From a virus (taxonomy: Duplodnaviria > Caudoviricetes): 59,134 nt of DNA. Shown here one piece after another: positions 6,618 to 58,593 of this stretch. Positions within the stretch are counted from its first letter, which is position 1. Each line of letters begins with the position of its first letter. The DNA lies in IMG/VR virus record IMGVR_UViG_3300030060_005339, positions 1 to 59,134 of that record; one strand, 5' to 3'. A program made the translations under genes and the position numbers. The notes beneath the pieces were generated by a model. The model was not told where the DNA came from, searched no databases, and saw only the letters and a program-made list of their open reading frames with translations.

Positions 6618-6746
6618 CTCGCCTTCGCTCGTTGGGGGGGATAGGGTATAGAATGAATCTAATAGCATATTAATGAACAACAGGCGAAGCCCATAATATC
6701 TATTAGAATGAATCTATACCCTATCCCCCCCAACGAGCGAAGCGAG
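6618..6746. repeat. Long imperfect palindrome with perfect 30-bp arms (6623-6652 / 6713-6742)
   Basis: CTTCGCTCGTTGGGGGGGATAGGGTATAGA and its exact reverse complement. Confidence 0.95.
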
Positions 6747-42016: not shown

Positions 42017-43560
42017 ATAACGTACCTGTAATAATCATCTTGGGCTTGTATCAGATATAGGTTTTCTATTGTGCGTGTAACCGCAACATAGAACTGTCTG
42101 TGCAGCCCATCGGGTTGTAACATAGAGGTTCGCTTTTGTGATTTAGATAAATCTAGATACACAGCAACGTTCTCCGCTTCTCCACCTTTTGCCTGATGTA
42201 TAGTTGAAATGACAATTCGTGGTTCTCCTAATAAATCTTCTTCGTTCTTTAATGCTTTCTCTATAAAACTTCTTCTTTCTACGTCTATCGTTTTATCAAA
42301 CACAGTTTGCCATTCTTGACCAAGGCATTCTGTTTTGAGTCCATAGTTATCTATAATCTGTTGCAGTGATAACGACTGCCCTTGGTTTGGAGCCTGAGAA
42401 ACCTGTGTAATAAACCCTCTCTTTACCCCTGTCTTGCCTAAATAACTGTAGAGATCATCTAGCTCTGCTAAAGTAATGTCTTCTTTATTATTTAGTCTTT
42501 CCCAAATCTGTATGGCCGCAACCATCTTTCTAGGTATGTACCGAAAGTTGTTGTGAGCAAAAGCAAAGCCATTGTCTATCAAATACTTTCTAACGTTGTA
42601 CCCTTTAGATGCGTCGGTAAGCATGTAGTCGCAAGACGCAAGCACTAGCCAGTTCCCCTCCCTCAAAGGCAATAAATCTACCGAACTAACTTTACTGACT
42701 GTGCCTGGTTCTTCTCTAGGCCTATACGTTTTAGGTTCTCTAGAAACTATGCGCTTAGATATGCGCTCAGCTATTGGATGTACTTTTCCAGGTATACGGT
42801 AAGACTGGTCTAACACAATGCTTTCACCTGTGTAGTTTACAAAACGCTGTGGCTTTGCTCCGTTCCATTCGTATATAGCCTGATCGTCGTCCCCAGCTAT
42901 GTATGTCTTTTTAGAGTTCAAAGCCAACTTTTCTACTAGCCTCCAGTTGAGCTCTGCCAAATCCTGCGCTTCATCGACAATCAGTAGGTCTAGTTCAGGA
43001 GCCTCACCATCGTCTAAAAATTTGTTTATCATGTCAGCGAACGAGTAGACCACAGGGACTCTAGAAAGCCTGAACGACTCCCAAGCTTCTGCTATGGGCT
43101 CCAACATGTGTGTGACAACACCCTTGCGTTGTTCTTTTTCCAAAGACAAACGTTCTTCTTTTAATGTACGACAGTTTGCTTTTGCACGTTCTATGATATC
43201 GAAATAGGGATCTTGGACCACGGACCTAAGGCCTCTTGCATTAGTGCCATACTTCTTTGTTAAGTTAAACTCATAATCTTCTAAGAAATCAAACACGTCT
43301 CTGCCACCCATCACTTGGGATATACCCATGATGCGTTTGCAGAAAGCATGGCTTGTACAGAAGTAAGGCATTTCATCAAAGCCAAGACCGAATCTTAAAT
43401 GAGCTCTGTTTTTTCCTTCATCAGCTGCTTTTACGGAGAAAGATATAAACGCTATCTTTTCAGGGGCAACACCTTCATCAAGGCTCTTCTCTATGATGTT
43501 CATAAGAGTTGTAGTCTTGCCTGTTCCAGGAGGCCCAAAGTATTTAGTTACTCTTCCCAT
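42013..43560 (-). CDS. UvrD/Rep superfamily 1 helicase
   Basis: GPPGTGKT, VDEAQD, GDDDQAIY, QSYR, STIHQAKGGE, YVAVTR. Confidence 0.95.
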   Translation of the reverse strand: MGRVTKYFGPPGTGKTTTLMNIIEKSLDEGVAPEKIAFISFSVKAADEGKNRAHLRFGLGFDEMPYFCTSHAFCKRIMGISQVMGGRDVFDFLEDYEFNLTKKYGTNARGLRSVVQDPYFDIIERAKANCRTLKEERLSLEKEQRKGVVTHMLEPIAEAWESFRLSRVPVVYSFADMINKFLDDGEAPELDLLIVDEAQDLAELNWRLVEKLALNSKKTYIAGDDDQAIYEWNGAKPQRFVNYTGESIVLDQSYRIPGKVHPIAERISKRIVSREPKTYRPREEPGTVSKVSSVDLLPLREGNWLVLASCDYMLTDASKGYNVRKYLIDNGFAFAHNNFRYIPRKMVAAIQIWERLNNKEDITLAELDDLYSYLGKTGVKRGFITQVSQAPNQGQSLSLQQIIDNYGLKTECLGQEWQTVFDKTIDVERRSFIEKALKNEEDLLGEPRIVISTIHQAKGGEAENVAVYLDLSKSQKRTSMLQPDGLHRQFYVAVTRTIENLYLIQAQDDYYRYVI

Positions 43561-45140
43561 GGTAAAGGTGTTTTCTGTGTTTTAAATTCGTTAGAGTCAA
43601 CGTTGTTTTCGTCTATCTCGTATATGTCTAACATCCAAATCTTTTTGTTACCAACTGTTCTGTCGATGTACTTAGCCATGTTTGTGGCTCCCATGTTTTT
43701 AAGTTCTGTAAACACTTCGGCTTCTTTAATGTGACGCATCTTCTTAAACTCTTGGATAAAAATTACTGCGTCTCTACCTGTAAACCACCACTGTTTAGTC
43801 TTTTCCTCTTCGTATCTAAACACACCGTTAGATGCGATAGACAATCTTGATGAAGACTCAGACAGTCTGCAGAATTCATAAATGGCTTCTTGTAGTAGTC
43901 CTTGTTTTGTCATGTCAGCAGGAACTTCAACTTCTTGCACGTCCTGTAACAGAGCGTTTAGCTTAGCCACCCAATCTGTTTTCTTTACATCAGGAGGACA
44001 TATATTAAGAACCTCCATACATCTTTGTTGATACATAGAGAAGTTGTGCAGTTGTTTTGTGTCTAGCACGATTGTTCTACCATCTACGTCTAAATGCCAA
44101 AGCGGTGGATCAGTTAGATACTTACGCAAACCACCAAAGTTAGGATCACGTTCAGACGCATCGATACCATATCTTCTAGTTACGCAGATACCACTTTGAC
44201 AAAAATCAACCAAAGGTTGTTTACTGCATTGGTATCTGTATTCTGATTTCTCTAGACTTTGTATGATTGTATTAAGCTCACTATGAGACAGAGCTTTTGT
44301 GCAAACTGTTTTGTTTATCTCCTGTAGTTTGTCTTTCCATTCTTCTCCCTCAGGATGCACTTTGCGTAAGAACACACCATAGTTAAGTAGTGCATTGTTG
44401 CGCATACCCTCAGGTATCCCATTTAGTTTCATGTGTATCAAACAAGGAGGAGCTTCGTCCCACATACTGCCTTGCTTAGTAATTTGTTTTTTCCTGCTTT
44501 TCTTTACAGCTATAAATTCGTCTAATTGTTTTTCTGTTACAGATATGTTGTCTACTAGATCAAAAAATTCTTTTATGTCCGCAGCTTCGCCATCAGGTTT
44601 TAGTGCGTATCTTGTTGTGTCTTCTCCTGCAAAGTAAGGCATGTTTAGCCAATTGCCTGTTTGATTTTCTTTTGGTAGTTGTTTAGACCATTCGTATTGT
44701 TTGGGAAAGATTTCGTCTCCTGTTCTCCCCATGGCCGCTGCTATCTCCTCTAGCTTAGCTTGGAACTTGAACGCTGGTATCGGTTCCTTAGTGAATAAAA
44801 ACAAATGTACGCCGCCTGATTTAGTCATACACGGCAACAAAGGCAGACTCATTTCTTCTATCCTTTGTAGTATTTCATTTGTATCGATGGGGTATTCGTC
44901 AACGTCTATACAACCCCATTTGCAAGTTTCATCATCAGTCAATGGTATTACACCAATAGACAGGTCACCTTTTAAATGTTTCTCCCAAAGATCTAATGTA
45001 AGAGGCTCTTGTAGTGTCCGTCCTCTGCCATCTTTCTTAACACCCTTTGCAGTGTTCTTTTGTCCTGTAATTTCATATATACCGTGAGCTCTCTCTAGTC
45101 CTGAGAATACTTGCTTAAATTTGTTTGCAATTTCTTCCAT
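43548..45140 (-). CDS. Primase-polymerase (AEP-like) with a PriCT-like domain
   Basis: WGCIDVD, TKSGGVHLF, WLNMPY, PPC...EGMRNNALL; Cys cluster. Confidence 0.8.
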   Translation of the reverse strand: MEEIANKFKQVFSGLERAHGIYEITGQKNTAKGVKKDGRGRTLQEPLTLDLWEKHLKGDLSIGVIPLTDDETCKWGCIDVDEYPIDTNEILQRIEEMSLPLLPCMTKSGGVHLFLFTKEPIPAFKFQAKLEEIAAAMGRTGDEIFPKQYEWSKQLPKENQTGNWLNMPYFAGEDTTRYALKPDGEAADIKEFFDLVDNISVTEKQLDEFIAVKKSRKKQITKQGSMWDEAPPCLIHMKLNGIPEGMRNNALLNYGVFLRKVHPEGEEWKDKLQEINKTVCTKALSHSELNTIIQSLEKSEYRYQCSKQPLVDFCQSGICVTRRYGIDASERDPNFGGLRKYLTDPPLWHLDVDGRTIVLDTKQLHNFSMYQQRCMEVLNICPPDVKKTDWVAKLNALLQDVQEVEVPADMTKQGLLQEAIYEFCRLSESSSRLSIASNGVFRYEEEKTKQWWFTGRDAVIFIQEFKKMRHIKEAEVFTELKNMGATNMAKYIDRTVGNKKIWMLDIYEIDENNVDSNEFKTQKTPLPWEE

Positions 45141-45155
45141 ACGTACTTAGTAAGA

Positions 45156-45190
45156 AGGCTCCAGCATTGAGTGAGGGAATGCTGGAGCCT
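45156..45190. terminator. 13-bp perfect hairpin between the SSB-like gene and primase (attenuator or processing site)
   Basis: AGGCTCCAGCATT-N9-AATGCTGGAGCCT; only a weak U tail. Confidence 0.5.
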
Positions 45191-45197
45191 AATGAAG

Positions 45198-45986
45198 TTA
45201 GTCTTCCCAATCCTTATTGGACTCAGACTTATCTTCGATTGCGGAGGTCTGCTGACCAGGTAGCTGATCCATTCCTCCATCGGAACAAAACTTAGAGAAT
45301 TCTTCGGCCTCTTTAAAGAGATCAATTTCTTTCTCCTCCAATACCCGTTCCTGCGTAATACTATAGCTATACCACGATCCACGATCATTGGATTCCACTT
45401 GCGTCTTTAGCTTGTACCAATGCGAGTATGCAGGTGGAGTGTAAGCTCCTTTTGCACCTTGCAGTTTGGTTCCCTGTATCAGGGTATTCCAACTACGCGA
45501 GTGTTTAAGTTGTGATCCAGTCATATTGATAACACACCTTTGGGGCGTATCATCAATGAGCGCGTAACCATAATGATTAGCAGTAGTCGTCAACTGAGTT
45601 TCCCCACTTGGCGTAACTAATCTACCTTGGCTATCACGTTGGCATCGATTCAACAGATCAGAGTCTGCAGGATGCACAGTAACAAGTCCTCCACCTTTCT
45701 CACGTAAACGCCACTCGACTAAAGTTTTGTTGTAGTAGACAGGTAGAAATGACAGACCTTCGTCTCCACTTATACAAGTGCTGTTGCCTGAATAGAAGAT
45801 GTCTCCTTCCTCTGCGTCTGCAACATAATCTGCGCTGGCTTTTTGTCTTTGCGGAGACATTGCTTGCACTATGCTGATACGCGGAGTCTTGAGGTCTTCC
45901 GCACCTACATCGCCGAAACCTTTTTCTTCGATGTTTTCAAATAGGGACGTTAAGGATGTCCCCTCTCCATTTTTCTTCGTTGCCAT
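45198..45986 (-). CDS. Putative single-stranded DNA-binding protein
   Basis: DLKTPRISIVQAMSP...MTGSQLKHSRSWN; acidic C-terminal tail; replication module context. Confidence 0.6.
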   Translation of the reverse strand: MATKKNGEGTSLTSLFENIEEKGFGDVGAEDLKTPRISIVQAMSPQRQKASADYVADAEEGDIFYSGNSTCISGDEGLSFLPVYYNKTLVEWRLREKGGGLVTVHPADSDLLNRCQRDSQGRLVTPSGETQLTTTANHYGYALIDDTPQRCVINMTGSQLKHSRSWNTLIQGTKLQGAKGAYTPPAYSHWYKLKTQVESNDRGSWYSYSITQERVLEEKEIDLFKEAEEFSKFCSDGGMDQLPGQQTSAIEDKSESNKDWED

Positions 45987-46008
45987 TTTTTACTCCTTCT
46001 TTCTTCGT

Positions 46009-46581
46009 TCAACGATTAATTTTAGTGCGCTTGCCTTGATACACAGAAAACTTCTTCTGTATGTCTTGGTCAAACTCACCGTTACCTGATTCTATTTGTT
46101 CTTTAACAAATGCTTTCAGGGTGCTTGGATGCACTGCTTCCTTTTCCTCAGGTATAAACCCTTGTTTGGAAAGCGATGCCACCAATTCTTTTGCGAGATT
46201 ATCCTCACCCTGACCAAACGAAAGTGTCATGGTGTTCTTGATAATATCTCCGTGTCCGTTTTCTCTGAGCCAGTTGTGCGCATCTTCTAAATTAGCTGCG
46301 GATATTCTGGCACTGTAGAATGGTTCAGCTGATATACGTGAACCATCATTTAGTCTAAGGTCTGACACACCAAGTTGTGTAAGTCTGTCAGGTATAAGTT
46401 GTTCTGAAAGTTCTCTCTGCTGATCTTTCAGTCGTTTTAATCTTTCTTCTGTGTTGCCTACCTCAGCTTCTACTCGTAAAAGTTTTTGACATAAATCACT
46501 GAGGTCCTTAATAGAGTCTTCTGATATTTCCTCTACTGCTTTTGTTGTGCTCTCTTCAAAGAGATCTTTGATGTTTGACAT
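46009..46581 (-). CDS. Conserved replication-module protein (WLRENGHGDIIKN...VHPSTLKAFVKE)
   Basis: 190-aa ORF with RBS. Confidence 0.85.
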   Translation of the reverse strand: MSNIKDLFEESTTKAVEEISEDSIKDLSDLCQKLLRVEAEVGNTEERLKRLKDQQRELSEQLIPDRLTQLGVSDLRLNDGSRISAEPFYSARISAANLEDAHNWLRENGHGDIIKNTMTLSFGQGEDNLAKELVASLSKQGFIPEEKEAVHPSTLKAFVKEQIESGNGEFDQDIQKKFSVYQGKRTKINR

Positions 46582-46617
46582 TTCTCACTCCTTCTTTTTT
46601 TCGTTATCAACTTAAAG

Positions 46618-46655
46618 TTGCCAAGGCATAATACCATCTATATAATATATTGCAA
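46618..46655. promoter_or_regulatory. Overlapping divergent sigma70 promoters
   Basis: + strand TTGCCA-N17-TATAAT (46618-46646); - strand TTGCAA-N16-TATTAT. Confidence 0.6.
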
Positions 46656-46704
46656 CACTTTAAGACGTGTTCAAATATATAACGAAGAATAAAGGACGGA
46701 ACTT

Positions 46705-48153
46705 ATGGAACTTAACAATTACGAATTCAAGAGCGAGCCCTACCAGCATCAATTAGAAACTCTCCAAGAAAGTTACCATCGTAACCTATTTGCATTGTTT
46801 TTGGAAATGGGACTGGGTAAATCTAAAATTCTCCTGGACAACGCAGGTATTTTATTTGAAGAAGGTAAAATATCTGGACTGCTTATCGTGTCACCGAAAG
46901 GTAACCTACGAAACTGGGACATCAATGAAGTAAACAAACATCTGCCTGACCGTATAGAACGTAACGTATTAGTATGGCAACCAAACCACACACAGAAATG
47001 GTTGCATGACTTTAAGAAGATGGTCAACGAACCAAGCGACGGCACATTAAATATCTTTCTAGTTAATGTAGAAGCTTTTGCTACAGTCAAGGCATGTAAA
47101 TTTGTAGAAGAGTTTATGGTTACACACGATGTAATGATGGCTGTAGATGAATCTACCACGATCAAGAATCCAAAAGCCAAACGCACACAACATCTTATTA
47201 AGTTGGCACCACTAGCAGACTACAGAAGAATACTTACAGGCTTTCCAATAACTAAGGCCCCACTTGATCTGTACTCACAATGTTATTTCTTATCTCCTAA
47301 CCTGCTGGGATTCAGCAGTTTCTACGCTTTTCAAGCTAGGTACGCAATCACACAACGCAGACAAATGGGCAAACATGCTTTTCAACAGATAGTTGGATTT
47401 CAGAAACTAGAGGAGCTGCAACAATCGATCAAGGACTTTTCTATACGTAAGATAAAAGATGAGTGTTTAGACTTGCCTGAGAAAGTTTATGTAAGACGAC
47501 ACGTAGAACTAACTGACGAACAAAACAAAGCATACGGCACAATGAAACGTGAAGCACTTATGGTATTAGAAGATGAATTGTTTTCTACTATGAACGTACT
47601 GACTCAGCTGATGCGCTTACAACAAGTGGTGGCAGGTAGTTTACGTAACGAAGAAGGTGAAACAATTATATTAAAGAACAACAGAGTGCAGACGGTATTG
47701 GACTTATTAGAAGAAACATCTGGCAAAGTTGTGATCTTTGCAGTTTTTCAAACAGATATACAAGAACTAGAACGAGCCATCACTGAGAAGTTCGGTCAAG
47801 GTTCTGTTGCATCTTACTATGGCCATACACCGCAGGACGAACGACAAAACATTATTGAGAAGTTTCAGGATCCTGACAGTGAGTTAAGATACTTTGTGTC
47901 AAACCCACAGACAGGTGGCAGAGGTATTACGCTTACGGAAGCCAGCACAATGATATTTTATTCTAACTCCTACGACCTAGAACTTAGAGTACAAGCCGAA
48001 GATCGCATACATAGGATCGGACAGGAACGCAGTTGTACTTATATAGACCTAGTGTCACAAGGCACAGTTGATGAACAAATACTTAAAAATTTGTTGAGCA
48101 AGGTTAAGATCAGTAACGAAGTTCTTGGGGAGGTTCGCAGTTGGTTCCAATAA
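46705..48153 (+). CDS. SNF2-family (SF2) helicase
   Basis: EMGLGKS, VDEST, LTGFP, GITLT, QAEDRIHRIGQ. Confidence 0.95.
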   Translation: MELNNYEFKSEPYQHQLETLQESYHRNLFALFLEMGLGKSKILLDNAGILFEEGKISGLLIVSPKGNLRNWDINEVNKHLPDRIERNVLVWQPNHTQKWLHDFKKMVNEPSDGTLNIFLVNVEAFATVKACKFVEEFMVTHDVMMAVDESTTIKNPKAKRTQHLIKLAPLADYRRILTGFPITKAPLDLYSQCYFLSPNLLGFSSFYAFQARYAITQRRQMGKHAFQQIVGFQKLEELQQSIKDFSIRKIKDECLDLPEKVYVRRHVELTDEQNKAYGTMKREALMVLEDELFSTMNVLTQLMRLQQVVAGSLRNEEGETIILKNNRVQTVLDLLEETSGKVVIFAVFQTDIQELERAITEKFGQGSVASYYGHTPQDERQNIIEKFQDPDSELRYFVSNPQTGGRGITLTEASTMIFYSNSYDLELRVQAEDRIHRIGQERSCTYIDLVSQGTVDEQILKNLLSKVKISNEVLGEVRSWFQ

Positions 48154-48174
48154 AGGCTATAATTTATAGTCTAT

Positions 48175-48525
48175 ATGGAAGAAGCAATAAAATTTATTAA
48201 TGAAGTAGGCTTTCCTATTGCTGCTGCACTAGGTTTAGGTTTCTTTATATGGAAACTTATCAATAGAATTATTGATGGTATGGAAACTAAGTTAGATGTC
48301 TTAGATGATAAAGTAGCTGATCAGATAGAACAAATGGAACTACGTCTCGGCACAAAACTAGACTCTCAACATGGTATCTTAGTGGCTCTTATAGATCGTG
48401 TAAGAAGTTTAGATAATGAGATAATTAGACAGGATACTCTTATAAAAACAATACTTGGTGTGCCACAACTGATAGATAGCAACAAGATTGCGAAAGCAGA
48501 TAGAGACGACCAGAGGAAAGATTGA
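48175..48525 (+). CDS. Membrane-anchored coiled-coil protein, first gene of the curli-like operon
   Basis: VGFPIAAALGLGFFIW TM segment; TATAAT upstream; coupled to csgF. Confidence 0.75.
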   Translation: MEEAIKFINEVGFPIAAALGLGFFIWKLINRIIDGMETKLDVLDDKVADQIEQMELRLGTKLDSQHGILVALIDRVRSLDNEIIRQDTLIKTILGVPQLIDSNKIAKADRDDQRKD

Positions 48526-48992
48526 TGGCTCCTAAACGCCCTGATGAAATATTACTCTTAGCTTCTATGATAATAGTAATGTTTGTTGGTTTAGCTGTGC
48601 AAGCAGATGAAATGACCCACAAGTTTAAAAATCCTAGCTTTTCAGGGATAGGCACTTCTAGTCATTATTTAACTATAGAAAATCAAGAGTTCAATAGAAA
48701 AGAAGCTATACGTGAAGAGATCAAAGCCTACGTAGAAGATTTAGAAAGAGAAGCTGAGAACACAACCTTAGCTAGATTCATACGTAACTTAGAGAGTAGA
48801 ATATACGCACAACTTTCAAGACAGCTAGTAGATAGTTTGTTTGGTGAAACTGCATCTGATTTTGGTGTTCTAGAATTAGAAGGCAATACTATAGAATATC
48901 GGGTAGAAGACGACAAAGTAACATTAATAATAACAGATGAAGAAGGCGATACAACAGAGATTACTGTACCTCTCGGTTCTTTTACTTTCTAG
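48522..48992 (+). CDS. csgF: Curli assembly protein CsgF-like
   Basis: Signal peptide ending AVQA, then mature N-terminus DEMTHKFKNPSFSG (compare CsgF FRNPNFGG); C-terminal GDTTEITVP. Confidence 0.85.
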   Translation: MMAPKRPDEILLLASMIIVMFVGLAVQADEMTHKFKNPSFSGIGTSSHYLTIENQEFNRKEAIREEIKAYVEDLEREAENTTLARFIRNLESRIYAQLSRQLVDSLFGETASDFGVLELEGNTIEYRVEDDKVTLIITDEEGDTTEITVPLGSFTF

Positions 48993-49749
48993 TTGTGCAT
49001 TACTTGTAGACCCCTTAAACAATGGTGTACCACCACTACGAGATGTTGAACCTGCAAAAGTAAATTCTCTTCTTGTTACAGCACTTAAAGAACTAGACCC
49101 CCCTGTTAAAAAACCTATTGTTGCAGTTTACTCAACAAGTTTTCAAGATGATACAGGCCAACGTAGATCCAACAGTCAATACGCTAGTTTCAGTACAGCC
49201 ATCACTTCTTCTCCTGATGCCTATTTAATCCGAGCTCTTAAACACTCTAATTTTTTTGACGTGGTAGAACGCAAAGGACTAGATCATCTTACAAAAGAAA
49301 GACAAATAATTCGTTCTGCTAGAGAAAAGTTTGATGAAAAACAACAACTTAAACCTTTGCTTTTTGCTGGGCTACTTATGGAAGGGGGAGTCATAGGGTA
49401 TGAAACAAACGTAAAGTCTGGTGGAGCTGGAGCTAGGTATCTTGGAATTGGAGCATCCAAAGAATACAGACAAGACAGTATTACTGTGTCATTGCGAACA
49501 ATCTCTGTTCTTACAGGTAAAGTTTTAATAGAAATTTTAGTTACCAAAAGTGTTTTGAGTGCTTCTGTATCACAAGACGTTTTTAAGTTCTATAGTAATA
49601 ACACTGAATTAGTTGAAATTGAGAGCGGTATAGTAGAAAATGAATCTGTAAATATAGCATTACAGACAGCTGTGGAAACAGCAGTCTTACAAACGATACT
49701 CGAAGGCTTAGAACTAGGGTATTGGGAGCAAAGAAGTGAGAATGAATAA
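48937..49749 (+). CDS. csgG: Curli secretion pore lipoprotein CsgG-like
   Basis: Lipobox LLLSS-C; FQDDTGQR, FSTAIT, VVERKGLDHLTKERQIIR, EGGVIGYETNVKSGGAGARYLGIG. Confidence 0.93.
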   Translation: MKKAIQQRLLYLSVLLLSSCALLVDPLNNGVPPLRDVEPAKVNSLLVTALKELDPPVKKPIVAVYSTSFQDDTGQRRSNSQYASFSTAITSSPDAYLIRALKHSNFFDVVERKGLDHLTKERQIIRSAREKFDEKQQLKPLLFAGLLMEGGVIGYETNVKSGGAGARYLGIGASKEYRQDSITVSLRTISVLTGKVLIEILVTKSVLSASVSQDVFKFYSNNTELVEIESGIVENESVNIALQTAVETAVLQTILEGLELGYWEQRSENE

Positions 49750-50458
49750 ACTACTTATATCGTTGTTTTTAATAGCAACACCCCTCTATGCAGCCGACAA
49801 CGAAGTGTATATAGACCAATCTGGTGCTACGTCTAACTTAGACATAGAACAAGTTGGCGGTGGCGGTAATATTATCGGAGGTTCAGATGCTACAGCTGGT
49901 GCCTCTAATATGACTCCGTTAGATTTAGATGGCGCAACTATGACTTTGGACGTATTGCAAAAAGGATCTACTAACAAATTCCTTGGTGATATATGGGCAG
50001 ATAACTACACAGGTTACTTTTCATTTATAGGTGACAGTAATACATTTAATATGTCTACAGATGAAACAAACGCCACAGGAGCAGATGGTTCTAATGTAAA
50101 CGTACAGGTTACGGGTAACACAAACACCATGACACTTAATCACGGCATGACTGCACTAGCAGCTAATCTAGACTTAGATTGGATCGTACAGGGTGGAGGT
50201 AACAGTATTACAGCAGCCATAGATGTAGATGGAGCTACTAACTACATGGATATTGATGGTGATGATAATACAGTTACTTATGATGGTGACGGTTACGCAG
50301 GTGGCTACTTTTATCTAGATCATACAGGCAGCACAAGAACATTTAATATAGACCAGGAATCTACATCAGATAATGATTGGCTCAAGATTACCTCTGTTGG
50401 CTCTAATGGCACAGTCTGTGTTACTCAGTCAGACGCAGGAAATTCATTCGTCTGTTGA
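49736..50458 (+). CDS. Secreted curlin-like / beta-solenoid protein
   Basis: Signal peptide LYA; repeated IxQxGxxN and GxxN strands (IDQSGATSN, IEQVGGGGN, VLQKGSTN, VQVTGNTN, IVQGGGN). Confidence 0.65.
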   Translation: MRMNKLLISLFLIATPLYAADNEVYIDQSGATSNLDIEQVGGGGNIIGGSDATAGASNMTPLDLDGATMTLDVLQKGSTNKFLGDIWADNYTGYFSFIGDSNTFNMSTDETNATGADGSNVNVQVTGNTNTMTLNHGMTALAANLDLDWIVQGGGNSITAAIDVDGATNYMDIDGDDNTVTYDGDGYAGGYFYLDHTGSTRTFNIDQESTSDNDWLKITSVGSNGTVCVTQSDAGNSFVC

Positions 50459-51488
50459 TATAGGTTCTATATCTGAACTTAGAGGTAACGCACAAGTTCT
50501 AAGAGACAAAGCGTACGGAGCTGAGTTGCAGTTCGACATACAACAAATGGATGATGTCCGCACAGAAGCGGGCAGAGTTGCTATAACATTTGAGGACAGC
50601 TCTACAGTCAAACTAACAGAGCACTCTAAGTTAGTTATAGACGAATACATTTATGACCCTGACCCGTCAAAATCTAAAATGGCCTTAAAGTTTGCCAGTG
50701 GCACAGCACGATTTATCACAGGTAAGTTTAATAACAAAAGTAACATATCTATTAAAACTCCTACGGCAGACATAGCAATACGTGGTACCGACTTTACTTG
50801 CACCGTAGACGAGTTAGGTAGGTCTCTTGTCATACTGTTACCAGACGAGAACGGTATATCCAGCGGAGAAATATTAGTAACAACCGCAGCGGGTAGCGTA
50901 ACCTTAAATAAACCATACCAGGCAACGACTGTATCTGTGTATGAAAACAGCCCTACGAAACCAGTTACATTAGATATATCGTTAGACTTGATAGATAACA
51001 TGCTTATTGTTAATCCGCCTGAACAAACGCAAGAAGATTTAGAGCAGACACGAACGCAAACTTCAGCCGACTATTTAGATTTTAACGACCTAGATATAGA
51101 TTTTTTAAATGAAGACTTTCTTGATGCAGAACAGAATCTAGAATTTACAGAGTTAGACATTAACTATTTAGACGTAAACTTCCTAGAAGACTTGCTCAAC
51201 GTACTAGACGCATTAGCAATATCTAAAGAAGAAGACCAATTAAAACAAGGCGGTGTAGGCATTCGTATAGTTGGTACAGAAATAGGACAAGATAAAGATA
51301 CACAAATAACAACGATCATTGCAGGGCAAAAAATTAGTTTAATCAGAGCAGTTAATCAAAGTGCTAGACTGGACTTAGATGGATCACAAAGCTATACGGT
51401 CATATTGATACAGGATGGTGTAACAAATACAGTTAAAGTTAACGGTGGGTCTTCTACAACGATTACAATAAAACAAGGAACAGAATGA
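50373..51488 (+). CDS. FecR-domain periplasmic protein
   Basis: DDVRTEAGRVAITFEDSSTVKLTEHSKLVIDEY...TPTADIAIRGTDF FecR signature; acidic middle; beta-rich C-terminus. Confidence 0.85.
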   Translation: MIGSRLPLLALMAQSVLLSQTQEIHSSVDIGSISELRGNAQVLRDKAYGAELQFDIQQMDDVRTEAGRVAITFEDSSTVKLTEHSKLVIDEYIYDPDPSKSKMALKFASGTARFITGKFNNKSNISIKTPTADIAIRGTDFTCTVDELGRSLVILLPDENGISSGEILVTTAAGSVTLNKPYQATTVSVYENSPTKPVTLDISLDLIDNMLIVNPPEQTQEDLEQTRTQTSADYLDFNDLDIDFLNEDFLDAEQNLEFTELDINYLDVNFLEDLLNVLDALAISKEEDQLKQGGVGIRIVGTEIGQDKDTQITTIIAGQKISLIRAVNQSARLDLDGSQSYTVILIQDGVTNTVKVNGGSSTTITIKQGTE

Positions 51489-53227
51489 AAAAACTCCGAC
51501 TACCAGGTTTGATAGCTTTACTTGGACTACCTTTAGTCTTACAGCTTACTCCTTTAGAGATACTAAAGCTCAAGGTGTTTGATGCGTGGACGAAGGACCA
51601 AGAACCTTCTGGGTACTTTACGGTGCTGAACATTACCGAAGAGGATATTGCAAATGAAGGAGGATACCCTTTATCTAGGCAGACACTAGCACAAATTCAA
51701 ATTAACCTTTTACGTAAAGGGGCAACTGGAGTGGGATGGGTAATAGCTTTTCCACAGCCTGATAGATTTGGTGGCGACTTTGAGTTTGCAGAAGCTTTAT
51801 CTTTTTCTCCCAGTGTACTAGCCATGTTTGAAGGAGAAGGTGACTATCCTCCAACCACAGGGACAGTTATTTTGGGAGAAGACACGGGTGGCATTTTAGC
51901 TACGGGAGCTATACAAAACATTAAAGTGTTACAGAAAAGTGCAACACAGGGTCTAGCTGTAGCCAGGACAGATGTAGATAATTTAGTTCGCAGATTACCT
52001 TTGTTGATGCGCACACCTGATGGGTGGGTATCTGCATACGGTACAGAAGTATTGAAAGTTTTAGCGGGAGCAGACACTTACGTTATAAAGACGAATGATA
52101 ATGGTATAGAAGAAATCAGGGTAAAAGGGCTCCCACCAGTAAAAACAGACAGTTTAGGGCGCAAGTGGATAAGTTTCGTGAATACCCCGCAAACAAATTT
52201 AAAAGAAATGGATGTAGAAAATAAATTTGTTTTTGTGGGATTTACTGCAAAAGGTATTATGCCTCAACTCGCTACACCTGTAGGTCTGCTAGAACCACAT
52301 AAAATACAAGCAGCTTTAGCTGAATCTATACTTATACAAGATAGTCCTTACATACCAGATTACGCATTGGCTGTAGAAATGGCAGCCTTATTATTAGGCA
52401 TAGCTATGATGTGGTCACTGATTAATTTCTTGGGGATAACGTTGGGGATAAGTTTAGCTGTGTCTACCATGGCCTTAACTTTATTCGCAGGTTATAGCGT
52501 GGCACAACAAGGAGTATTGATAGATGTAACGTGGACTTTGATAGCAGAGTTTATAACGGCCACTGTAGCTTTCTACACACGATTCAGAGAACAGTACAAA
52601 CTACGACAACAAATCAAGAAACAGTTTGAACATTACCTCGATCCTAGACAGGTCAAGGCTTTACAAAAAGATCCTAGTTTACTGAAGTTGGGCGGAGAAC
52701 GAAGGAACTGTACGTTTTTGTTTACAGATGTACGTGGCTTCACTGCAATGAGTGAGCGCATGGATCCTGAGTTAGTGACTGTAATTATGAATGAAGCACT
52801 AACGATACAATCTGATACAGTTAAAAAATATGGTGGAATGATAGACAAGTATATTGGCGATGCGATGTTTGCCATATTTAATGCGCCCATAGATATGGTT
52901 AATCACGAAGAAGCTGCTGTGTTATGTGCACAAGAAATACAAAAACAGTTTAAAGAATCTTCTATTGGAGTTGAGATAGGCGTAGGAGTTAATACTGGCG
53001 AGGCAATTATTGGGAATATGGGAAGTGCAACACGGTTTGATTACACAGCTATTGGGGATGCAGTAAACCTTGCAGCCAGGCTAGAGTCAAGCACCAAAGA
53101 AGTAGGTAAAGACATAGTAATAGGAGAGTCTACAGCACAAGCATGTTCTTTCCCTTTAGCGGTGCTGCCTTCGATTACTGTTAAGGGTAAACAGGATAGA
53201 ATAAACATATTCACCTTGATGCCCTAA
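51485..53227 (+). CDS. CHASE2-domain membrane class III adenylate cyclase
   Basis: N-terminal TM, CHASE2-like region (DVDNLVRRLPL), 3 TMs, then FTDVRGFT, DKYIGDA and DYTAIGDAVNLAARLES. Confidence 0.93.
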   Translation: MKKLRLPGLIALLGLPLVLQLTPLEILKLKVFDAWTKDQEPSGYFTVLNITEEDIANEGGYPLSRQTLAQIQINLLRKGATGVGWVIAFPQPDRFGGDFEFAEALSFSPSVLAMFEGEGDYPPTTGTVILGEDTGGILATGAIQNIKVLQKSATQGLAVARTDVDNLVRRLPLLMRTPDGWVSAYGTEVLKVLAGADTYVIKTNDNGIEEIRVKGLPPVKTDSLGRKWISFVNTPQTNLKEMDVENKFVFVGFTAKGIMPQLATPVGLLEPHKIQAALAESILIQDSPYIPDYALAVEMAALLLGIAMMWSLINFLGITLGISLAVSTMALTLFAGYSVAQQGVLIDVTWTLIAEFITATVAFYTRFREQYKLRQQIKKQFEHYLDPRQVKALQKDPSLLKLGGERRNCTFLFTDVRGFTAMSERMDPELVTVIMNEALTIQSDTVKKYGGMIDKYIGDAMFAIFNAPIDMVNHEEAAVLCAQEIQKQFKESSIGVEIGVGVNTGEAIIGNMGSATRFDYTAIGDAVNLAARLESSTKEVGKDIVIGESTAQACSFPLAVLPSITVKGKQDRINIFTLMP

Positions 53228-53244
53228 TCATATAAACTAAGTTT

Positions 53245-56200
53245 ATGTCCATATTTTTTGGTAAAGACATTACAGCAGAGGATTTAGCTGCGGGTAGGTT
53301 ACAAGGTTCTGAAAAAGAAAAATCAGCTGTTAGTAAAGCTTTGCGATTTGGCTTAGACCAGCCAACAGAGAATGTTGCAACAACATTACGAGCACTAGGA
53401 TTTGACACACAAGCAGATACTTTAAGTGGCTTAATAGATGCCCCTGAAAATTATGACTCAAAAGCTGCTCAGTTTGTAGGAGAGGAGGGAATGTACGACT
53501 TTAGTGCTCTGCCTCTAGCCGTAGTAGAACAAGCGGGGCAGCTAGGCGGATCTTTATTATCTAGGAGTATTGGTGCAGGAGCAGGACTAGCAGTTGGTGG
53601 TCTTCCTGGAGCATTTATCGGCGGTTTACTTGGACCAGGGTTATTCGAAGCTGTGCAGATAGCAGGGCCAGTAGCCTTAGAAAGAGCTAGAAATGCTAAT
53701 CCTCCTAGAGAAGAGCCAGATATTTCTGATTGGGCAGCTGCTTTAGGCACTGCAACTTTTTCTGGAGTCTTAAATGCTATCGGTGCTAAAAACATTGGTA
53801 AATTAAACACTACATTAGTTGGTACAGGAGTGCGAGAAGGGAGCACAGAGTTCTTACAAGGACTCACCGAACAGTTTGGTAGCACAGCTGGTACAGACAA
53901 GGGACTAGAGTTAGATTTGAGACAAGCAGGTGGTGAAGGATTGATAGGTGGTTTTGCTGGAACATCTGCACAAATTCCTTCTTCTACATTAAACACAGCT
54001 CAATCATTGGAAGATCTTAGGCAAGACATAATCGGAGACAGCATAACAAATGCAATGTTTGACCAAACTACACCTGACCAGGCTGTAGAAGAAATGGGAG
54101 AGCAATTAATGTTAACGGAGCAAACTGTACAAAATATAGAGCAGTTTGAACAAGAAGCCGATCAATATGACCCTGATGACCCAGGAGCTTTTACTGATGA
54201 AGACATTATTCAAGAATTCTTAACAACTAACGATCAGTATTTAGAAAATTTAATTGAAACTGAATTTGGAAATCAATTAACTAGAGATCAACAATTTCAA
54301 TTGTTTGTAAATGTACAAGACTACATAAGAAATCATTTTGAATTTTTCGATCCTCGAACAACTGTTTCGCCACGAGAAGCATTAGCTCAAATGGCTCAAA
54401 CTGTTCAACAAGAATCGACAGCATTTTTAGACAGGGCCAACTTAGAACAAGTTGAATCAGGGACAGACCCGCGTTATGTTGGACCACAGTCTATGAATGT
54501 AAATCTTAACGCTAAGGAAGAATTATATAATCAAGGTGGAGCAGGCATAACGTCTATAGAATCAGGCATCGATCCTAATTTCTTAACGCAATCAATTTTA
54601 ATAGAAGATGGAATATTAGACCAACGTTTACCTAAGGATCCTAACAAACTTGTAAATCCTCAAGGGCTACTGCAAGAATTAGGCGTAAAAGAAACTGACA
54701 AAAATTGGTTCGAAACATCAAAAAGAGGTAGCAAAAAAGTTGTTAGTGAAGTTGTGAACACAGAGATAGCTCCTTTCTTAAAAGCTAAAAAAGACGCAGG
54801 AGAAAAAGTTACCCGTGCAGAAATAGAAAACATACTTTACGATTCTTTAAGTCGTCATAATTCTTTTTACCGAGAAGGTATGGAAACTGAGCATCGAGGC
54901 GGGCATACTTTTGCAGGCGAGGGACTAGGAGATTTATTCCCTGAAGTAGTCGACGTAGATAATTATTTTGAATTGTGGAATCATTATATTCCATTAATAC
55001 CTGGCAATTCTGCACTAGAAAATAGTCCTTATTTTAATCGTGATGGCAACGATAATTTGCATAATCCTCATGGAGATGGAGCAAACATGTGGACAAGAGG
55101 GTTTAAGGTAAGCCACCCACAAGGACTAGGAACAGGAAAATTAATTGCGGAAAATCAATCTAAACTTCACGGGCACTCACAAGACCCAAATAAAACTAGA
55201 GAAATGTATCTCTCTTCAGTAAACGTTGTTGAAGATACAACAGAAATAGACAATATTAGAAACAGAAGAGCAGATTATGACAGGGCTTACAATAATTTTG
55301 CGGAAGAGGTAGCTAATAAAAATACGACTGATGATACCTCGGTGTCACGAGCCATGGATACAGTTGCAACTTTGCTTTTAGAAGAGCCAAGCCAGTACGA
55401 CAATTACAGAGATGAAGCACTGTTAAATATAGATAAAGAGTTAAGTTCAATATCAAACGAATATGCAAACGAAGTAAAAAAACTAAGAACAAAACAAGCT
55501 AAAGAAAATAACGATGCTTTTGTAGATATAATTAATATAACGCAGCCTCTTGGCTCGATAGGTATATTGATAGATCAAGATAGTTTTCAAAACTTTATGG
55601 ACCAACCTGCACAAGCTTTAGATGTTTTTGAAAGTGCTGGAAGACAAAGAAGAAATAAATTTATTGAGTACGTCCTTGCTAACCACGGAGTCAATTTAAA
55701 TCTTGGAAGGATAGAAGATCCAGACACTTTTAGACCTATAGATCAAGAAATTTTAAATTTAGCCGATAGACCTAATTTAACAATAAACGAAAAACACGCT
55801 AAAGAAAAAGTAGAGTTGATATTGGACTATAGTCCTAAACTGGCTGATAAATACAACACGTTTAACAATTTAATAATAGCATCCGATAATTATCCTTCTA
55901 TGGCAGAGTCAAGACAGTTGGAAGAATTTGAAGGCAGAAGCAGAGAAGATAGAATACTGTACCCAGACTATCCGTTTAAAAACAATTACTCTGTAATGAA
56001 TTTAAGACGCGTGGTGACTAAGAGCATAAAAGACGGAGACGATTTTGTGTTTATAGGCAGCGGCGGAAAAGGAGGAGCTCCTGAGTCTGTGTATAAAGCT
56101 CAGAAAAAAGAAGCTGGAAACATTGCAGAAGTCATAGCCAGTTACCAAGATGCTTTGAAAGCGGAAGATTTATTTAAAGTGTTGCCAGATTCAGCAGACG

Positions 56201-56340
56201 TGCCAGGAGGCCCGTACTACGCATTGGACATAAGGCCGTTGAAACAGTTGATAGAAGCCAAAGTATTTAAAGGTTTCAAGGGCTATAAAGAAGGTGGTTT
56301 GGTTATGAACTATGGTGATTATGGAAGGAGTTATATTTAA
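53245..56340 (+). CDS. Large protein (1031 aa), polyvalent or ejection-protein-like
   Basis: G/A-rich N-terminus like 33769; LIAENQSKLH...YPFKN region; ends YKEGGLV. Confidence 0.7.
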   Translation: MSIFFGKDITAEDLAAGRLQGSEKEKSAVSKALRFGLDQPTENVATTLRALGFDTQADTLSGLIDAPENYDSKAAQFVGEEGMYDFSALPLAVVEQAGQLGGSLLSRSIGAGAGLAVGGLPGAFIGGLLGPGLFEAVQIAGPVALERARNANPPREEPDISDWAAALGTATFSGVLNAIGAKNIGKLNTTLVGTGVREGSTEFLQGLTEQFGSTAGTDKGLELDLRQAGGEGLIGGFAGTSAQIPSSTLNTAQSLEDLRQDIIGDSITNAMFDQTTPDQAVEEMGEQLMLTEQTVQNIEQFEQEADQYDPDDPGAFTDEDIIQEFLTTNDQYLENLIETEFGNQLTRDQQFQLFVNVQDYIRNHFEFFDPRTTVSPREALAQMAQTVQQESTAFLDRANLEQVESGTDPRYVGPQSMNVNLNAKEELYNQGGAGITSIESGIDPNFLTQSILIEDGILDQRLPKDPNKLVNPQGLLQELGVKETDKNWFETSKRGSKKVVSEVVNTEIAPFLKAKKDAGEKVTRAEIENILYDSLSRHNSFYREGMETEHRGGHTFAGEGLGDLFPEVVDVDNYFELWNHYIPLIPGNSALENSPYFNRDGNDNLHNPHGDGANMWTRGFKVSHPQGLGTGKLIAENQSKLHGHSQDPNKTREMYLSSVNVVEDTTEIDNIRNRRADYDRAYNNFAEEVANKNTTDDTSVSRAMDTVATLLLEEPSQYDNYRDEALLNIDKELSSISNEYANEVKKLRTKQAKENNDAFVDIINITQPLGSIGILIDQDSFQNFMDQPAQALDVFESAGRQRRNKFIEYVLANHGVNLNLGRIEDPDTFRPIDQEILNLADRPNLTINEKHAKEKVELILDYSPKLADKYNTFNNLIIASDNYPSMAESRQLEEFEGRSREDRILYPDYPFKNNYSVMNLRRVVTKSIKDGDDFVFIGSGGKGGAPESVYKAQKKEAGNIAEVIASYQDALKAEDLFKVLPDSADVPGGPYYALDIRPLKQLIEAKVFKGFKGYKEGGLVMNYGDYGRSYI

Positions 56341-56759
56341 TGTATGAATACGCTTGCACGGTGGAAAGGGTTGTCGATGGAGATACTATCGACGTTACTT
56401 TGGATCTCGGCTTTGACATTCTTCATAAGTGTCGTGTTCGCCTATATGGTATTGATACTCCCGAGTCACGTACTCGTAACCTGGACGAGAAGGCTAGAGG
56501 AAAAATGGCTGGGGCTTTCTTGAAGGAAGCGATTGAGGACGGGGAGAAAGTAGTTATACAAACAAAGCTCAAGGACTCCAAAGGTAAGTATGGCAGAGTA
56601 TTAGGTGATGTAGTTGTCGATGGCAAAAACATTAATCAGACGATGGTTCAATGCCACCTGGCGGTAGCCTACCATGGCCAATCAAAAGATGACGTAGAAG
56701 CTGAGCACATGCGTAACAGAGACATCCTGATCGAGAACGGTTTACACACACCAGTATAA
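56340..56759 (+). CDS. Thermonuclease (SNase-like)
   Basis: RVVDGDT, RLYGIDTPE, KYGRVL. Confidence 0.92.
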   Translation: MYEYACTVERVVDGDTIDVTLDLGFDILHKCRVRLYGIDTPESRTRNLDEKARGKMAGAFLKEAIEDGEKVVIQTKLKDSKGKYGRVLGDVVVDGKNINQTMVQCHLAVAYHGQSKDDVEAEHMRNRDILIENGLHTPV

Positions 56760-56799
56760 ATCCCTATACATATCCCATAGCCTGAAGTAGAATACATCC

Positions 56800-56939
56800 A
56801 CGCTGTAGATTTTTAGTCCAGCTGGATGGGGGGCAGCGTAAGGTCTTCAAAAACCTTGAAATCCAGAGAGTGCCAGCAGACGGTGTGCTCCATAAAGATA
56901 ACATCTGCAGGGGGAGCTGTTCGAGCCAAAACGCCTTAC
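56800..56939 (+). ncRNA. Candidate structured non-coding RNA
   Basis: GC-rich intergenic segment after a TAGAAT -10 box, with several stems and a possible pseudoknot. Confidence 0.4.
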
Positions 56940-56992
56940 TTTTACATAATTTAAGTAAAGCCTCCAGCCCAGTGATCCCCCACTTATTTATT

Positions 56993-57283
56993 ATGAAAAA
57001 ACAAAAACATTCAATACTAGAAGCACTAAAGAATAGTGTTTACGAAGATTTGCCACCGCAGATAAAGGACTTCTTTGACAACATAACTCCACAAGATTAT
57101 GTGCAGATGTTAGATGCCTTGAGGGATTACGGTGTGTTCAGCCCCGAAATTTTTGATTTGCTCAAGACTGTTATCTTGGAGCAAGACGGACAAATGACTC
57201 AAGAACAATACAGAGACTTTGTAGAACTGTGGTACGAACCTTCTCAGCTACAGAATTTCGGCAAAAAATTTACTTTGCACTAA
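56993..57283 (+). CDS. Hypothetical protein (probable start MKKQKH)
   Basis: The ORF-track start at 56870 runs through the putative RNA; the ATG at 56993 is more plausible. Confidence 0.65.
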   Translation: MKKQKHSILEALKNSVYEDLPPQIKDFFDNITPQDYVQMLDALRDYGVFSPEIFDLLKTVILEQDGQMTQEQYRDFVELWYEPSQLQNFGKKFTLH

Positions 57284-57312
57284 ACCCTACATTTCTTTAT
57301 TATTAGCCTATC

Positions 57313-57975
57313 ATGATAGGCGATAGCGGCGGAGTAGGCGGAGGATCTACAGGCATAGACAGAATAGACGTGCTTGGTTCAATACCAGGCGGTACTATGG
57401 GATTACCTTCCTCTGCTATGACATACATGGGCCCTTTTAGTGGTGGCATAGGAGCTTATGCTTCACCGTTTGGAATAGGAGACTTCACACCTAGCATACC
57501 TACGCCTGTTATGCCTCAGGTCCAACCAGAAAAAACCTTTGGACAGAAGGCTGGTGAAAGTATCAAAAATTTTTTAAAGCGTCTGGCTAGAGTACATCCA
57601 GCCACGCGTAATATAATGTTTATCCGTGACTTTATAAAAGGATTGCAAAACTCAGAAAACCCACAAGACTTTGTTAAAGGTATGATAAGCAATCTTGCTA
57701 TGCAGAAGGTAGGAAGCAATCTAGGCATTTCTCCTATGGGTCGTGCTGGCATAAGAACATTACGAAATGTCAGTCAAGGCAGGATCACACCAGGACAAGG
57801 ATTAGGTAGTCTTGCAACCTCTGCTGCTTTCCAAAAGGCAGGACCGTCTTTGTTTAGATCAGCCTACGACAAAGGCGGAATGAACGCTGTGTACGGTGTT
57901 GCTACGCTATTAGGTATGGCACAAAACGCTGCTCAGCGAAATATTTTACAGCCAGGGCCAGGTGGCGATGGGTAA
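57313..57975 (+). CDS. Gly-rich hypothetical protein
   Basis: 220-aa ORF. Confidence 0.75.
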   Translation: MIGDSGGVGGGSTGIDRIDVLGSIPGGTMGLPSSAMTYMGPFSGGIGAYASPFGIGDFTPSIPTPVMPQVQPEKTFGQKAGESIKNFLKRLARVHPATRNIMFIRDFIKGLQNSENPQDFVKGMISNLAMQKVGSNLGISPMGRAGIRTLRNVSQGRITPGQGLGSLATSAAFQKAGPSLFRSAYDKGGMNAVYGVATLLGMAQNAAQRNILQPGPGGDG

Positions 57976-58099
57976 AGGATCTAAGCAAAGACCAGCTTCT
58001 ATCTCTGTTGAAGAGTTTAGTAAGAACTGGGATAAGATTTTTAAGAATGCGCAGAAAAAACATTTAAGCGGTAGCCTGTCGGGTAAGGATACTGTATAA
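57968..58099 (+). CDS. Small protein (43 aa, MGKGSKQRP...NWDKIF)
   Basis: Translated by hand; the GKGSxxRP...NWDxIF motif is recalled from marine phages. Confidence 0.7.
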   Translation: MGKGSKQRPASISVEEFSKNWDKIFKNAQKKHLSGSLSGKDTV

Positions 58100-58200
58100 T
58101 ACATCTTATATAAATAACCTCCTTGGTATTTATATGTTAAAAGTTACACACTGTTTGCCTAGTGTGGTCCTTGAAAGGCTTAGTTTCACAAAACTAGAAG

Positions 58201-58232
58201 AAGGGAAGAACCCGTAATTCTTCCCTTTTTTT
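58201..58232 (+). terminator. Intrinsic terminator
   Basis: AAGGGAAGAA-N7-TTCTTCCCTT followed by a T-run. Confidence 0.85.
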
Positions 58233-58257
58233 GTGGACGAGGGACCAAGGACTACGG

Positions 58258-58593
58258 ACTTTCTAACCTGAGCCTCACTTTAGAAGTTAGATGCAAGTTA
58301 TTGATTCTGTTGATAATAAAAATCTTCTAACTTTGGTAAGGTTAGATCGTAAGCTATTGATTTTATTAGCAATGTTTCTATTCCTATATAACAAAACCTA
58401 ACCTAACCTGAAATATTTCAAAAAGATTTTTCAAATACGTTAAAAATACAGAATTTTTATTTTCTAGGTTAGAAGTGATGAAAATATAGCCCTTATAAGG
58501 GTTTCCGTCTAACCTGACAGAAGTTAGCTCAGGTTAGAAAGTGCCAAGAATGTTGAAAGAATGCGGGTTTAGAGCTAACTTGACAGAAGTTAT
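58258..58593. repeat. Iteron-like cluster (CTAACYT in both orientations), putative replication origin
   Basis: About 13 copies around an AT-rich core; perfect 16-bp inverted repeat at 58258-58273 / 58527-58542. Confidence 0.75.

Follow-up and report, generated by a model that had tools for sequence, protein, structure and literature searches.

A curli region is already on record in pelagiphages. In nine HTVC023P-type podoviruses and in pelagimyophages, genes labelled histidine kinase ("HK"), CsgF, CsgG, CsgA/B and FecR have been reported as one region, often with a second CsgA/B gene and an adenylate cyclase gene after FecR, and in phylogenetic trees the viral CsgG, CsgF, FecR and cyclase proteins grouped with alphaproteobacterial versions (PMC9599517; mSystems 2022). 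The genes were found at all 65 GOV2.0 stations and had matches in metatranscriptomes (PMC9599517). For the phage Melnitz the pore alone was discussed, with the proposal of a pore acting in lysis, and the words "cyclase" and "FecR" have 0 occurrences in the available text of that paper (PMC9004378). On the bacterial side, published accounts describe FecR-domain genes paired with CHASE2 sensors in Burkholderia, Sinorhizobium meliloti and Campylobacterota, and in S. meliloti the outer-membrane protein NsrA is needed to activate the CHASE2 cyclases (the CyaK/CyaD1/CyaD2 - Clr pathway). Here we have analysed a version of this region, a block of six genes at positions 48175-53227 of the IMG/VR virus record IMGVR_UViG_3300030060_005339. 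The window, that is, the whole stretch of DNA analysed, is the entire record of 59134 bases (estimated completeness 98%).

The gene set as such is already known. The first-pass annotation of this DNA was not aware that a circuit of this kind had been characterised in any phage, a statement overtaken by the publication of the cluster in 2022, FecR and cyclase included, from bioinformatics only (PMC9599517); we found no experimental study of the function of the block in the literature. What appears to go beyond the main text of that paper is the tracking of the cyclase by FecR alleles and a theme of type I secretion, FecR and CHASE2 in bacteria. Our reading, which we consider narrowly probable, is that the block is the published pelagiphage curli region and that its FecR protein is a periplasmic partner of the CHASE2 domain, setting the activity of the cyclase. 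The link from FecR to CHASE2, proposed in the first-pass annotation, finds support in allele tracking, bacterial gene neighbourhoods, the PupR-type fold of the FecR protein and the published pairings, and as a functional association it is well supported. A direct physical contact between the two proteins is what we infer from it.

The block and the site upstream of it are made up as follows:

48134..48163, + strand: promoter-like site TTCGCA-18-TATAAT (10/12 matches), upstream of gene 1
48175..48525, + strand: gene 1, predicted membrane coiled-coil protein of 116 amino acids (aa) (phrog_18771, 2.6e-15)
48522..48992, + strand: CsgF homologue, 156 aa, with signal peptide (PF10614, 8.3e-18; phrog_35372, 3.1e-43; probable ATG at 48525)
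48937..49749, + strand: CsgG lipoprotein, 270 aa, outer-membrane curli-type channel subunit (PF03783, 1.7e-49)
49736..50458, + strand: gene 4, predicted secreted beta-solenoid protein, 240 aa (signal peptide, composition and AlphaFold2 model)
50373..51488, + strand: exported FecR-fold protein, 371 aa (PF04773, 3.7e-13, at residues 60-152)
51485..53227, + strand: class III adenylate cyclase with a transmembrane (TM)-CHASE2-TM block architecture, 580 aa (PF05226, 8.4e-25; PF00211, 3.1e-17)

All six same-strand, overlapping open reading frames (ORFs) of the first-pass annotation were recovered, with successive overlaps of 4, 56, 14, 86 and 4 nucleotides (nt), and Pfam bore out the names that it had given to CsgF, CsgG, FecR and the CHASE2 cyclase. 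PHROG families of "unknown function" cover five of the six block genes, so phages with these genes were already present in that library.

Viral loci and FecR alleles

A CsgG-based scan of viral contigs gave 215 stretches; a relative is encoded by 210 of them, of which we used the best 80, all with at least 74% identity (loci carry L numbers in what follows). Where the contig left room for it, the arrangement was constant: gene 1 precedes CsgF in 59/59 loci, and FecR follows the curlin-like gene in 59/59 loci with at least 1850 nt available. The cyclase follows FecR in 44 of the 53 loci with at least 1000 nt beyond FecR. The annotations of the phages HTVC008M (KC465899) and Melnitz (MZ577097) give the same gene order as the window. 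Together with a locus in a Henriciella genome (see below), these survey results support the suggestion that csgFG would co-occur with FecR and cyclase genes elsewhere.

The FecR proteins of the nine loci devoid of cyclase are 67-76% identical to that of the window, versus at least 82% in the 44 loci that have it. We have compared this with the other genes of the block in those loci that are complete for CsgF, CsgG, gene 4 and FecR. The cyclase is present in 41 of them, the window among these, and absent from eight; this set leaves out L081 and other incomplete loci and keeps near-identical contigs in. Over FecR residues 26-205 the mean distance is 0.064 within the cyclase-bearing loci and 0.040 within the cyclase-less ones versus 0.326 between them, and over residues 61-100 the corresponding figures are 0.023, 0.042 and 0.50. 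The ratio of between to within distances is 1.07 for CsgF, 1.08 for CsgG and 0.89 for gene 4, none of which is split by the presence of the cyclase. The N-terminal domain of FecR therefore falls into two clearly separate alleles, according to whether the cyclase is present. The same holds for a divergent pair of loci: over FecR residues 61-150, L084 (with cyclase) is 74% identical to the cyclase-bearing type versus 61% to the other, and L085 (without cyclase) 56% versus 82%. A Thr-Pro motif is replaced in all cyclase-less FecR copies and kept in every cyclase-bearing copy shown, including those of HTVC008M, Melnitz and Henriciella; in a 73-sequence FecR alignment P130 of this motif is invariant and T129 nearly invariant.

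In two loci, L019 and L027, the loss of the cyclase is a deletion. The last ~45 nt of the cyclase gene remain after the FecR stop codon in both, and in the window an imperfect direct repeat of 16-18 nt flanks the gene. The FecR proteins of these two loci are mosaics. Residues 26-205 are of the cyclase-less type (87-100% identical, by segment, to L032, L048 or L080) and residues 251-370 are window-like (82-91%). The region of FecR that tracks the cyclase is thus not the region that lies next to it, so that simple linkage to the cyclase gene does not explain the allele. The pattern in L019 points to mosaic recombination that took place recently inside a single phage lineage. Compared with window positions 41937-58258, L019 is 87% identical in CsgG, 75% in FecR and 75% in the 1031-aa gene that follows the block.

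FecR-domain genes beside bacterial CHASE2 cyclases

Among 401 alphaproteobacterial genomes searched, 235 match the phage cyclase at E<=1e-10. We have selected the 20 top-ranked distinct CHASE2-cyclase loci, from 20 different genomes and with Henriciella excluded (279 kb in total). In a six-frame hidden Markov model (HMM) search a FecR-domain gene was adjacent or one gene away in nine of these 20 closest loci; none came up at the 74 bacterial csgG loci without the five-gene module (see below). Seven of the nine neighbouring FecR-domain proteins are large (929 to >2100 residues, some of them cut by contig ends) and share a layout (L196, L198, L199, L202, L204, L207, L208): a conserved N-terminal stretch and the FecR domain, then Ig, cadherin or RTX repeats. 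Type I secretion genes (ABC, HlyD or OEP) are present in at least six of the 20 loci, and those of L196, L199 and L202 adjoin the giant FecR protein. This count of type I genes is a lower bound, since the ORF set lacks the cyclase ORF itself in L203, L204, L207 and L214; in L210 several of its long ORFs have no family. At L205 a Crp-family regulator (5932-6642; cNMP_binding and HTH_Crp_2 domains) lies directly beside the CHASE2 cyclase and type I secretion genes. The literature on RTX adhesins and retention modules made no mention of FecR among the matches listed, and in the available text of the literature on SAR11 cyclic AMP (cAMP) receptors nothing on cAMP was found.

From the side of the curli genes, a CsgG-profile scan of the genome collection gave at least 601 stretches, with a relative encoded in at least 522, and we worked with the best 80. 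Among these, FecR and cyclase occur on the short contigs L084, L085, L089, L091 and L101, with gene 1 or close phage-type copies, and the contigs L087 and L147 end before FecR. These seven contigs (4.7-11.8 kb, with a phage-type cassette and several of them with gene 1) come from metagenome-assembled genomes (MAGs) labelled Maricaulis, Rhodobacteraceae, Flavobacteriaceae, Polynucleobacter and Pirellulales; probably they are phage sequences that ended up in bacterial bins. Apart from such contigs, FecR and cyclase genes were seen in L086 alone, a Henriciella MAG contig of 397 kb that encodes CsgF, CsgG, a curlin-like protein of 504 aa, FecR and a CHASE2 cyclase, in the neighbourhood of genes for a TonB-dependent receptor, an FAA hydrolase and an oxidase. 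Gene 1 is missing at this locus.

The FecR-fold protein and the cyclase

A signal peptide opens the phage FecR protein; its hydrophobicity is preserved throughout the viral copies listed, and it has an Ala-x-Ala-type end in HTVC008M, Melnitz and Henriciella. Its AlphaFold2 model (predicted local distance difference test, pLDDT, 84) has an N-terminal beta domain (~30-200), an acidic linker of low confidence (~205-290) and a C-terminal beta-sandwich (~298-368). Judged from this model, the N-terminal domain adopts the PupR/FecR-type fold of periplasmic cell-surface-signalling domains: it aligns with the PupR CCSSD (6OVK_R) at Z 15.5 (root-mean-square deviation, rmsd, 2.6; 134 residues aligned) and with the putative anti-sigma factor 4M0N at Z 14.0. 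By Pfam, hydropathy and the model, the protein lacks a cytoplasmic anti-sigma domain as well as a membrane anchor; it matches no second Pfam family, and its sole hydrophobic segment is a signal peptide of the cleavable type. Residues 27-120 also give a middling match (Z 7.4, 72 aligned, 25% identity) to 5IX9, a "cell surface anchoring domain" that is presumably the N-terminal domain of an RTX adhesin and on which no claim is built here. The C-terminal domain, barely probed against solved folds, gave a best Z of 3.5, and its residues 290-371 had no phmmer match in the giant bacterial FecR proteins.

In the cyclase, PF05226 (CHASE2) covers residues 13-304 and the output domain residues 407-577, with hydrophobic segments at 4-27 and ~290-362 in a simple hydropathy scan; this is consistent with a predicted TM-CHASE2-3TM topology and with the CHASE2-3TM-cyclase layout given in the first-pass annotation. 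The output domain aligns with Cya2-type catalytic domains, and D415, K455, D459, T521, N528 and R532 are all present; across 41 relatives no variation occurs at D415, K455, D459 and R532, and hardly any at N528. We take these residues to be the two metal-binding Asp, the substrate-specifying Lys and Thr/Asp, and the transition-state Asn and Arg. The Glu of the guanylate cyclase Cya2 (2W01) is a Lys in the phage enzyme, as it is in the engineered adenylate-cyclase form 6FHT. With the catalytic residues in place, the phage cyclase should make cAMP. A complex prediction for CHASE2 (residues 24-292) and FecR (24-215) scored 0.04 versus a mark of 0.32, which is uninformative either way.

The curli genes and gene 1

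CsgG matches the E. coli protein (3X2R) at 8.9e-47 across residues 7-267, and its lipobox ends at C20, a cysteine that is invariant in six aligned sequences. CsgF has a hydrophobic N-terminus at residues 10-28 that resembles a signal peptide; a sequence comparison of CsgF with solved structures gave nothing at E<=0.01. CsgE (PF10627) had no match in the 59-kb genome, in a search whose control was positive in E. coli.

The product of gene 4, called curlin-like in the first-pass annotation, starts with a segment resembling a signal peptide and is rich in Gly, Thr, Asp and Asn, with repeated Q-x-G-x-x-N motifs whose Q, G and N columns are invariant in 11 relatives. It has no Pfam family at E<=0.01. 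Curlin_rpt stays below threshold (E 0.15; 16 bits versus a cut-off of 20.7), although it is the sole such match in the phage, and one of the 11 relatives reaches E 0.0055. Sequence and profile searches against solved structures gave chance-level matches only, CsgA not among them, and Foldseek against pdb gave no match at E<=0.001. The AlphaFold2 model (pLDDT 76.9) is all-beta, and in VIA-align comparisons solved CsgA (8C50_A; Z 16.8, 193 aligned, 21% identity, rmsd 8.8) is level at the top with a SufB-like beta-helix (9H78_B; Z 16.9), above many other solenoids. The earlier name is thus backed only in part, by a beta-solenoid model with solved CsgA tied for the best match but with Curlin_rpt below threshold; "curlin-like" is a sensible label that falls short of being established.

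Gene 1 has a single hydrophobic segment (residues 11-29) and no Pfam family at E<=0.01, and neither HisKA nor HATPase matched it even at E<=10. Its neighbours in the atlas are virus-only clusters devoid of Pfam families. From its sequence we would describe it as a one-pass membrane coiled-coil protein, and the "HK" label (PMC9599517) was not reproduced.

Genomic setting

The window encodes terminase, portal, head and tail genes, a family A DNA polymerase, a primase and helicases. The nearest DNA polymerases are those of 023Pt_psg01 (54.6%) and the Pelagibacter phages HTVC023P (53.5%) and HTVC027P (50.3%), for which reason we assign the sequence to a near-complete genome of an HTVC023P-type podovirus; its host would be that inferred from its HTVC023P-type relatives. 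The block is not a host-derived chimera, a possibility raised in the first-pass annotation: its flanks are the same across many independent contigs, and its GC content shows no anomaly. The same annotation placed the six genes behind a TATAAT box. The hexamer is indeed there, within the promoter-like site at 48134-48163; such matches number 30 in positions 46400-57000 versus 26.9 +/- 4.4 in shuffles, that is, they are at chance level in this region, so that the box carries no evidential weight. After the cyclase there is no terminator-like site and the next gene begins 18 nt on.

The curli block occupies at least two genomic positions in related phages. In window-like genomes it lies between a SNF2 helicase and the 1031-aa gene, and in other genomes directly after a nuclease gene. 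Seen from the nuclease gene (56340-56759 in the window), the block is upstream in window-like phages, with or without the 1031-aa gene between, and directly downstream in most others (L028-L082). This nuclease is a homologue of staphylococcal nuclease (PF00565, 2.8e-15), and the idea that it might be a homing enzyme mobilising the block was dropped on this account. The 1031-aa ORF (53245-56340), directly after the cyclase, has a Gly-rich, hydrophobic N-terminal region and belongs to neither a Pfam nor a PHROG family. Relatives are 34% to 91% identical to it, with neighbouring genes above 85%, and in L019 and L027 the ORF adjoins FecR directly. Elsewhere in the window, an ORF of 1829 aa (33769-39258) has no PHROG family at E<=1e-5.

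Proposed mechanism and alternatives

According to the reading that we favour, the block would derive from a module of five alphaproteobacterial genes (CsgF, CsgG, curlin-like protein, FecR and CHASE2 cyclase), which in phages is preceded by the gene for the small membrane coiled-coil protein. CsgG and CsgF would form an outer-membrane channel in the infected cell, with the beta-solenoid protein as its likely cargo. The exported FecR-fold protein would reside in the periplasm, partner the CHASE2 domain and set the activity of the cyclase, which would make cAMP in the cytoplasm. A relay from the pore or its cargo to FecR, a direction of signalling, a stimulus and a reader of the cAMP are likewise inferred; in the first-pass annotation the input would be a surface event such as superinfection, and the cAMP would be made in the infected cell. 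The conserved gene order, the retention of FecR with CsgFG after loss of the cyclase and the analogy with the bacterial loci argue for the relay, and in that analogy the FecR domain is part of the probable cargo of another secretion system. As far as the published description of NsrA goes, this precedent shows by analogy that wiring from the outer membrane to a CHASE2 cyclase exists.

Several observations weigh against this reading. Its weakest step is that from the pore to FecR, because 74 of the best 80 csgG loci of bacteria (1.14 Mb, all 80 taken together) have CsgF and CsgG only, with neither a FecR domain nor CHASE2, and because the secretion genes near bacterial FecR-CHASE2 pairs are of type I and not of type VIII. 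The cyclase is optional, being missing from nine of the 53 viral loci, and FecR is kept in these, so that it must have a cyclase-independent role too. The replication proteins of L019 are 100% identical to those of the window, and it is precisely the cyclase gene (window 51489 to 53189) that is missing there. The viral loci are not independent of each other, and the allele association may come down to perhaps three backgrounds (L019/L027; the L032/L048/L080 types; L085). The phage genome encodes no cNMP-binding domain, and the place of gene 4 among the curlins is in doubt.

The published interpretation of the region is that auxiliary curli fibres aggregate infected cells or make them adhere, with FecR as an iron-responsive regulator and cAMP regulating the secretion genes (PMC9599517). 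CsgF, CsgG and a secreted, fibre-like protein are indeed never missing, the occurrence at every GOV2.0 station and in metatranscriptomes cited above would suit it, and the Crp-family regulator beside the CHASE2 cyclase of L205 is a bacterial example of the sort of regulation implied. The regulatory part fits less well with an exported protein made of a signal peptide and a periplasmic FecR domain, in which no anti-sigma N-domain or anchor was found, and with a phage genome in which Sigma70_r2 and STN gave no match and which, as said, lacks a cNMP-binding domain. Neither CsgE (our search) nor CsgD (according to the available text of PMC9599517) is in the viral region, and the authors of the Melnitz paper saw no clumping (PMC9004378). 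We consider this interpretation unlikely. It could also be that a CsgFG-fibre module and a FecR-CHASE2 module merely lie side by side, having hitch-hiked from one bacterial donor, and have no functional connection. The scarcity of FecR and CHASE2 at the best 80 bacterial csgG loci points in this direction, as does the fact that CsgG was seen at 0/20 CHASE2-cyclase loci (with the viral HMM set on called ORFs, genes being missed in some loci). Nevertheless, FecR stays with CsgFG in the nine cyclase-less loci, overlaps of 4 to 86 nt run through the whole block, and podoviruses, myoviruses and Henriciella share one gene order. In our estimate a mere juxtaposition is quite unlikely.

A further explanation would see in CsgG and CsgF a repurposed ungated pore, pinholin- or secretin-like, serving lysis timing or passage, with FecR and cyclase as passengers. 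The phage does lack the CsgE gate, and in cyclase-less loci (the L032 and L080 types; L048-L051 and L080-L082) the genes after the block encode a Gly-rich membrane protein and a product whose N-terminus, judged by eye from a motif, is presumably lysozyme-like. The proposal of a pore acting in lysis has been made for Melnitz (PMC9004378). However, the homologue of the Gly-rich protein in the window (79% identical) lies at 29744-30193, in the structural region and ~18 kb off the block, the block itself is found at two or more places in related genomes, and the secreted beta-solenoid and FecR, superfluous to a bare pore, are kept in 59/59 loci. We regard a bare pore as very improbable.

The periplasmic partnership of FecR and CHASE2 could be extended into a more general scheme, which we offer as a doubtful conjecture. 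The FecR fold would be a general periplasmic adaptor that conveys to CHASE2 the state of an outer-membrane secretion machine or of its tethered cargo, the machine being CsgG/CsgF in phages and Henriciella, or, in other Alphaproteobacteria, type I secretion with giant RTX adhesins. In this manner an event at the surface or envelope of the infected cell would be turned into cAMP by the phage, and the two FecR alleles would be signalling and non-signalling forms. To our knowledge CHASE2 is a widespread sensor domain with no known ligand. If the pairing with FecR is true, it would be the first defined periplasmic partner for CHASE2 and would tie cAMP signalling to bacterial secretion machines. The cassette takes up 8.5% of the phage genome (5053/59134 bases) and gives SAR11-type hosts functions that they otherwise lack, according to PMC9599517.

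Comparison with known systems

Compared with the E. coli curli system (CsgBAC-CsgDEFG), the phage has CsgG and CsgF in common and a secreted beta-solenoid as a candidate cargo. It differs in having no CsgE, in a Curlin_rpt match that is only sub-threshold and in the addition of FecR and a cyclase; CsgC and CsgD are also absent from the viral region (according to the available text of PMC9599517). The NsrA pathway of S. meliloti shares the CHASE2 adenylate cyclases, with CsgG as a mere candidate for the outer-membrane role in the phage, and a published account treats a FecR-domain gene, SMc02177, alongside the Clr targets SMc02178 and SMb20495. That gene is, however, not required for signal perception, and the phage has no Clr-like receptor. 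With the FecR/PupR anti-sigma factors the phage protein shares the periplasmic fold, whereas the cytoplasmic anti-sigma domain, the anchor, the extracytoplasmic function (ECF) sigma factor and the STN-bearing transducer have no counterpart in the phage. The alphaproteobacterial CHASE2 cyclases found beside FecR-domain proteins are 30-34% identical to the phage cyclase, but their loci have type I secretion genes and their FecR domain lies near the N-terminus of a giant protein, as opposed to the stand-alone protein of 371 aa in the phage.

The closest system is the pelagiphage region with type VIII secretion, FecR and adenylate cyclase genes (T8SS-FecR-AC). The main text of the paper describing it has 0 occurrences of CHASE2, and it takes gene 1 for a histidine kinase and FecR for an iron regulator, points on which our analysis differs (PMC9599517). 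The window has one curlin-like gene, not two. In the rest, that is, in its genes, their order, the type of phage, the small membrane protein that precedes them and the optional cyclase, the published region is the same as the one described here.

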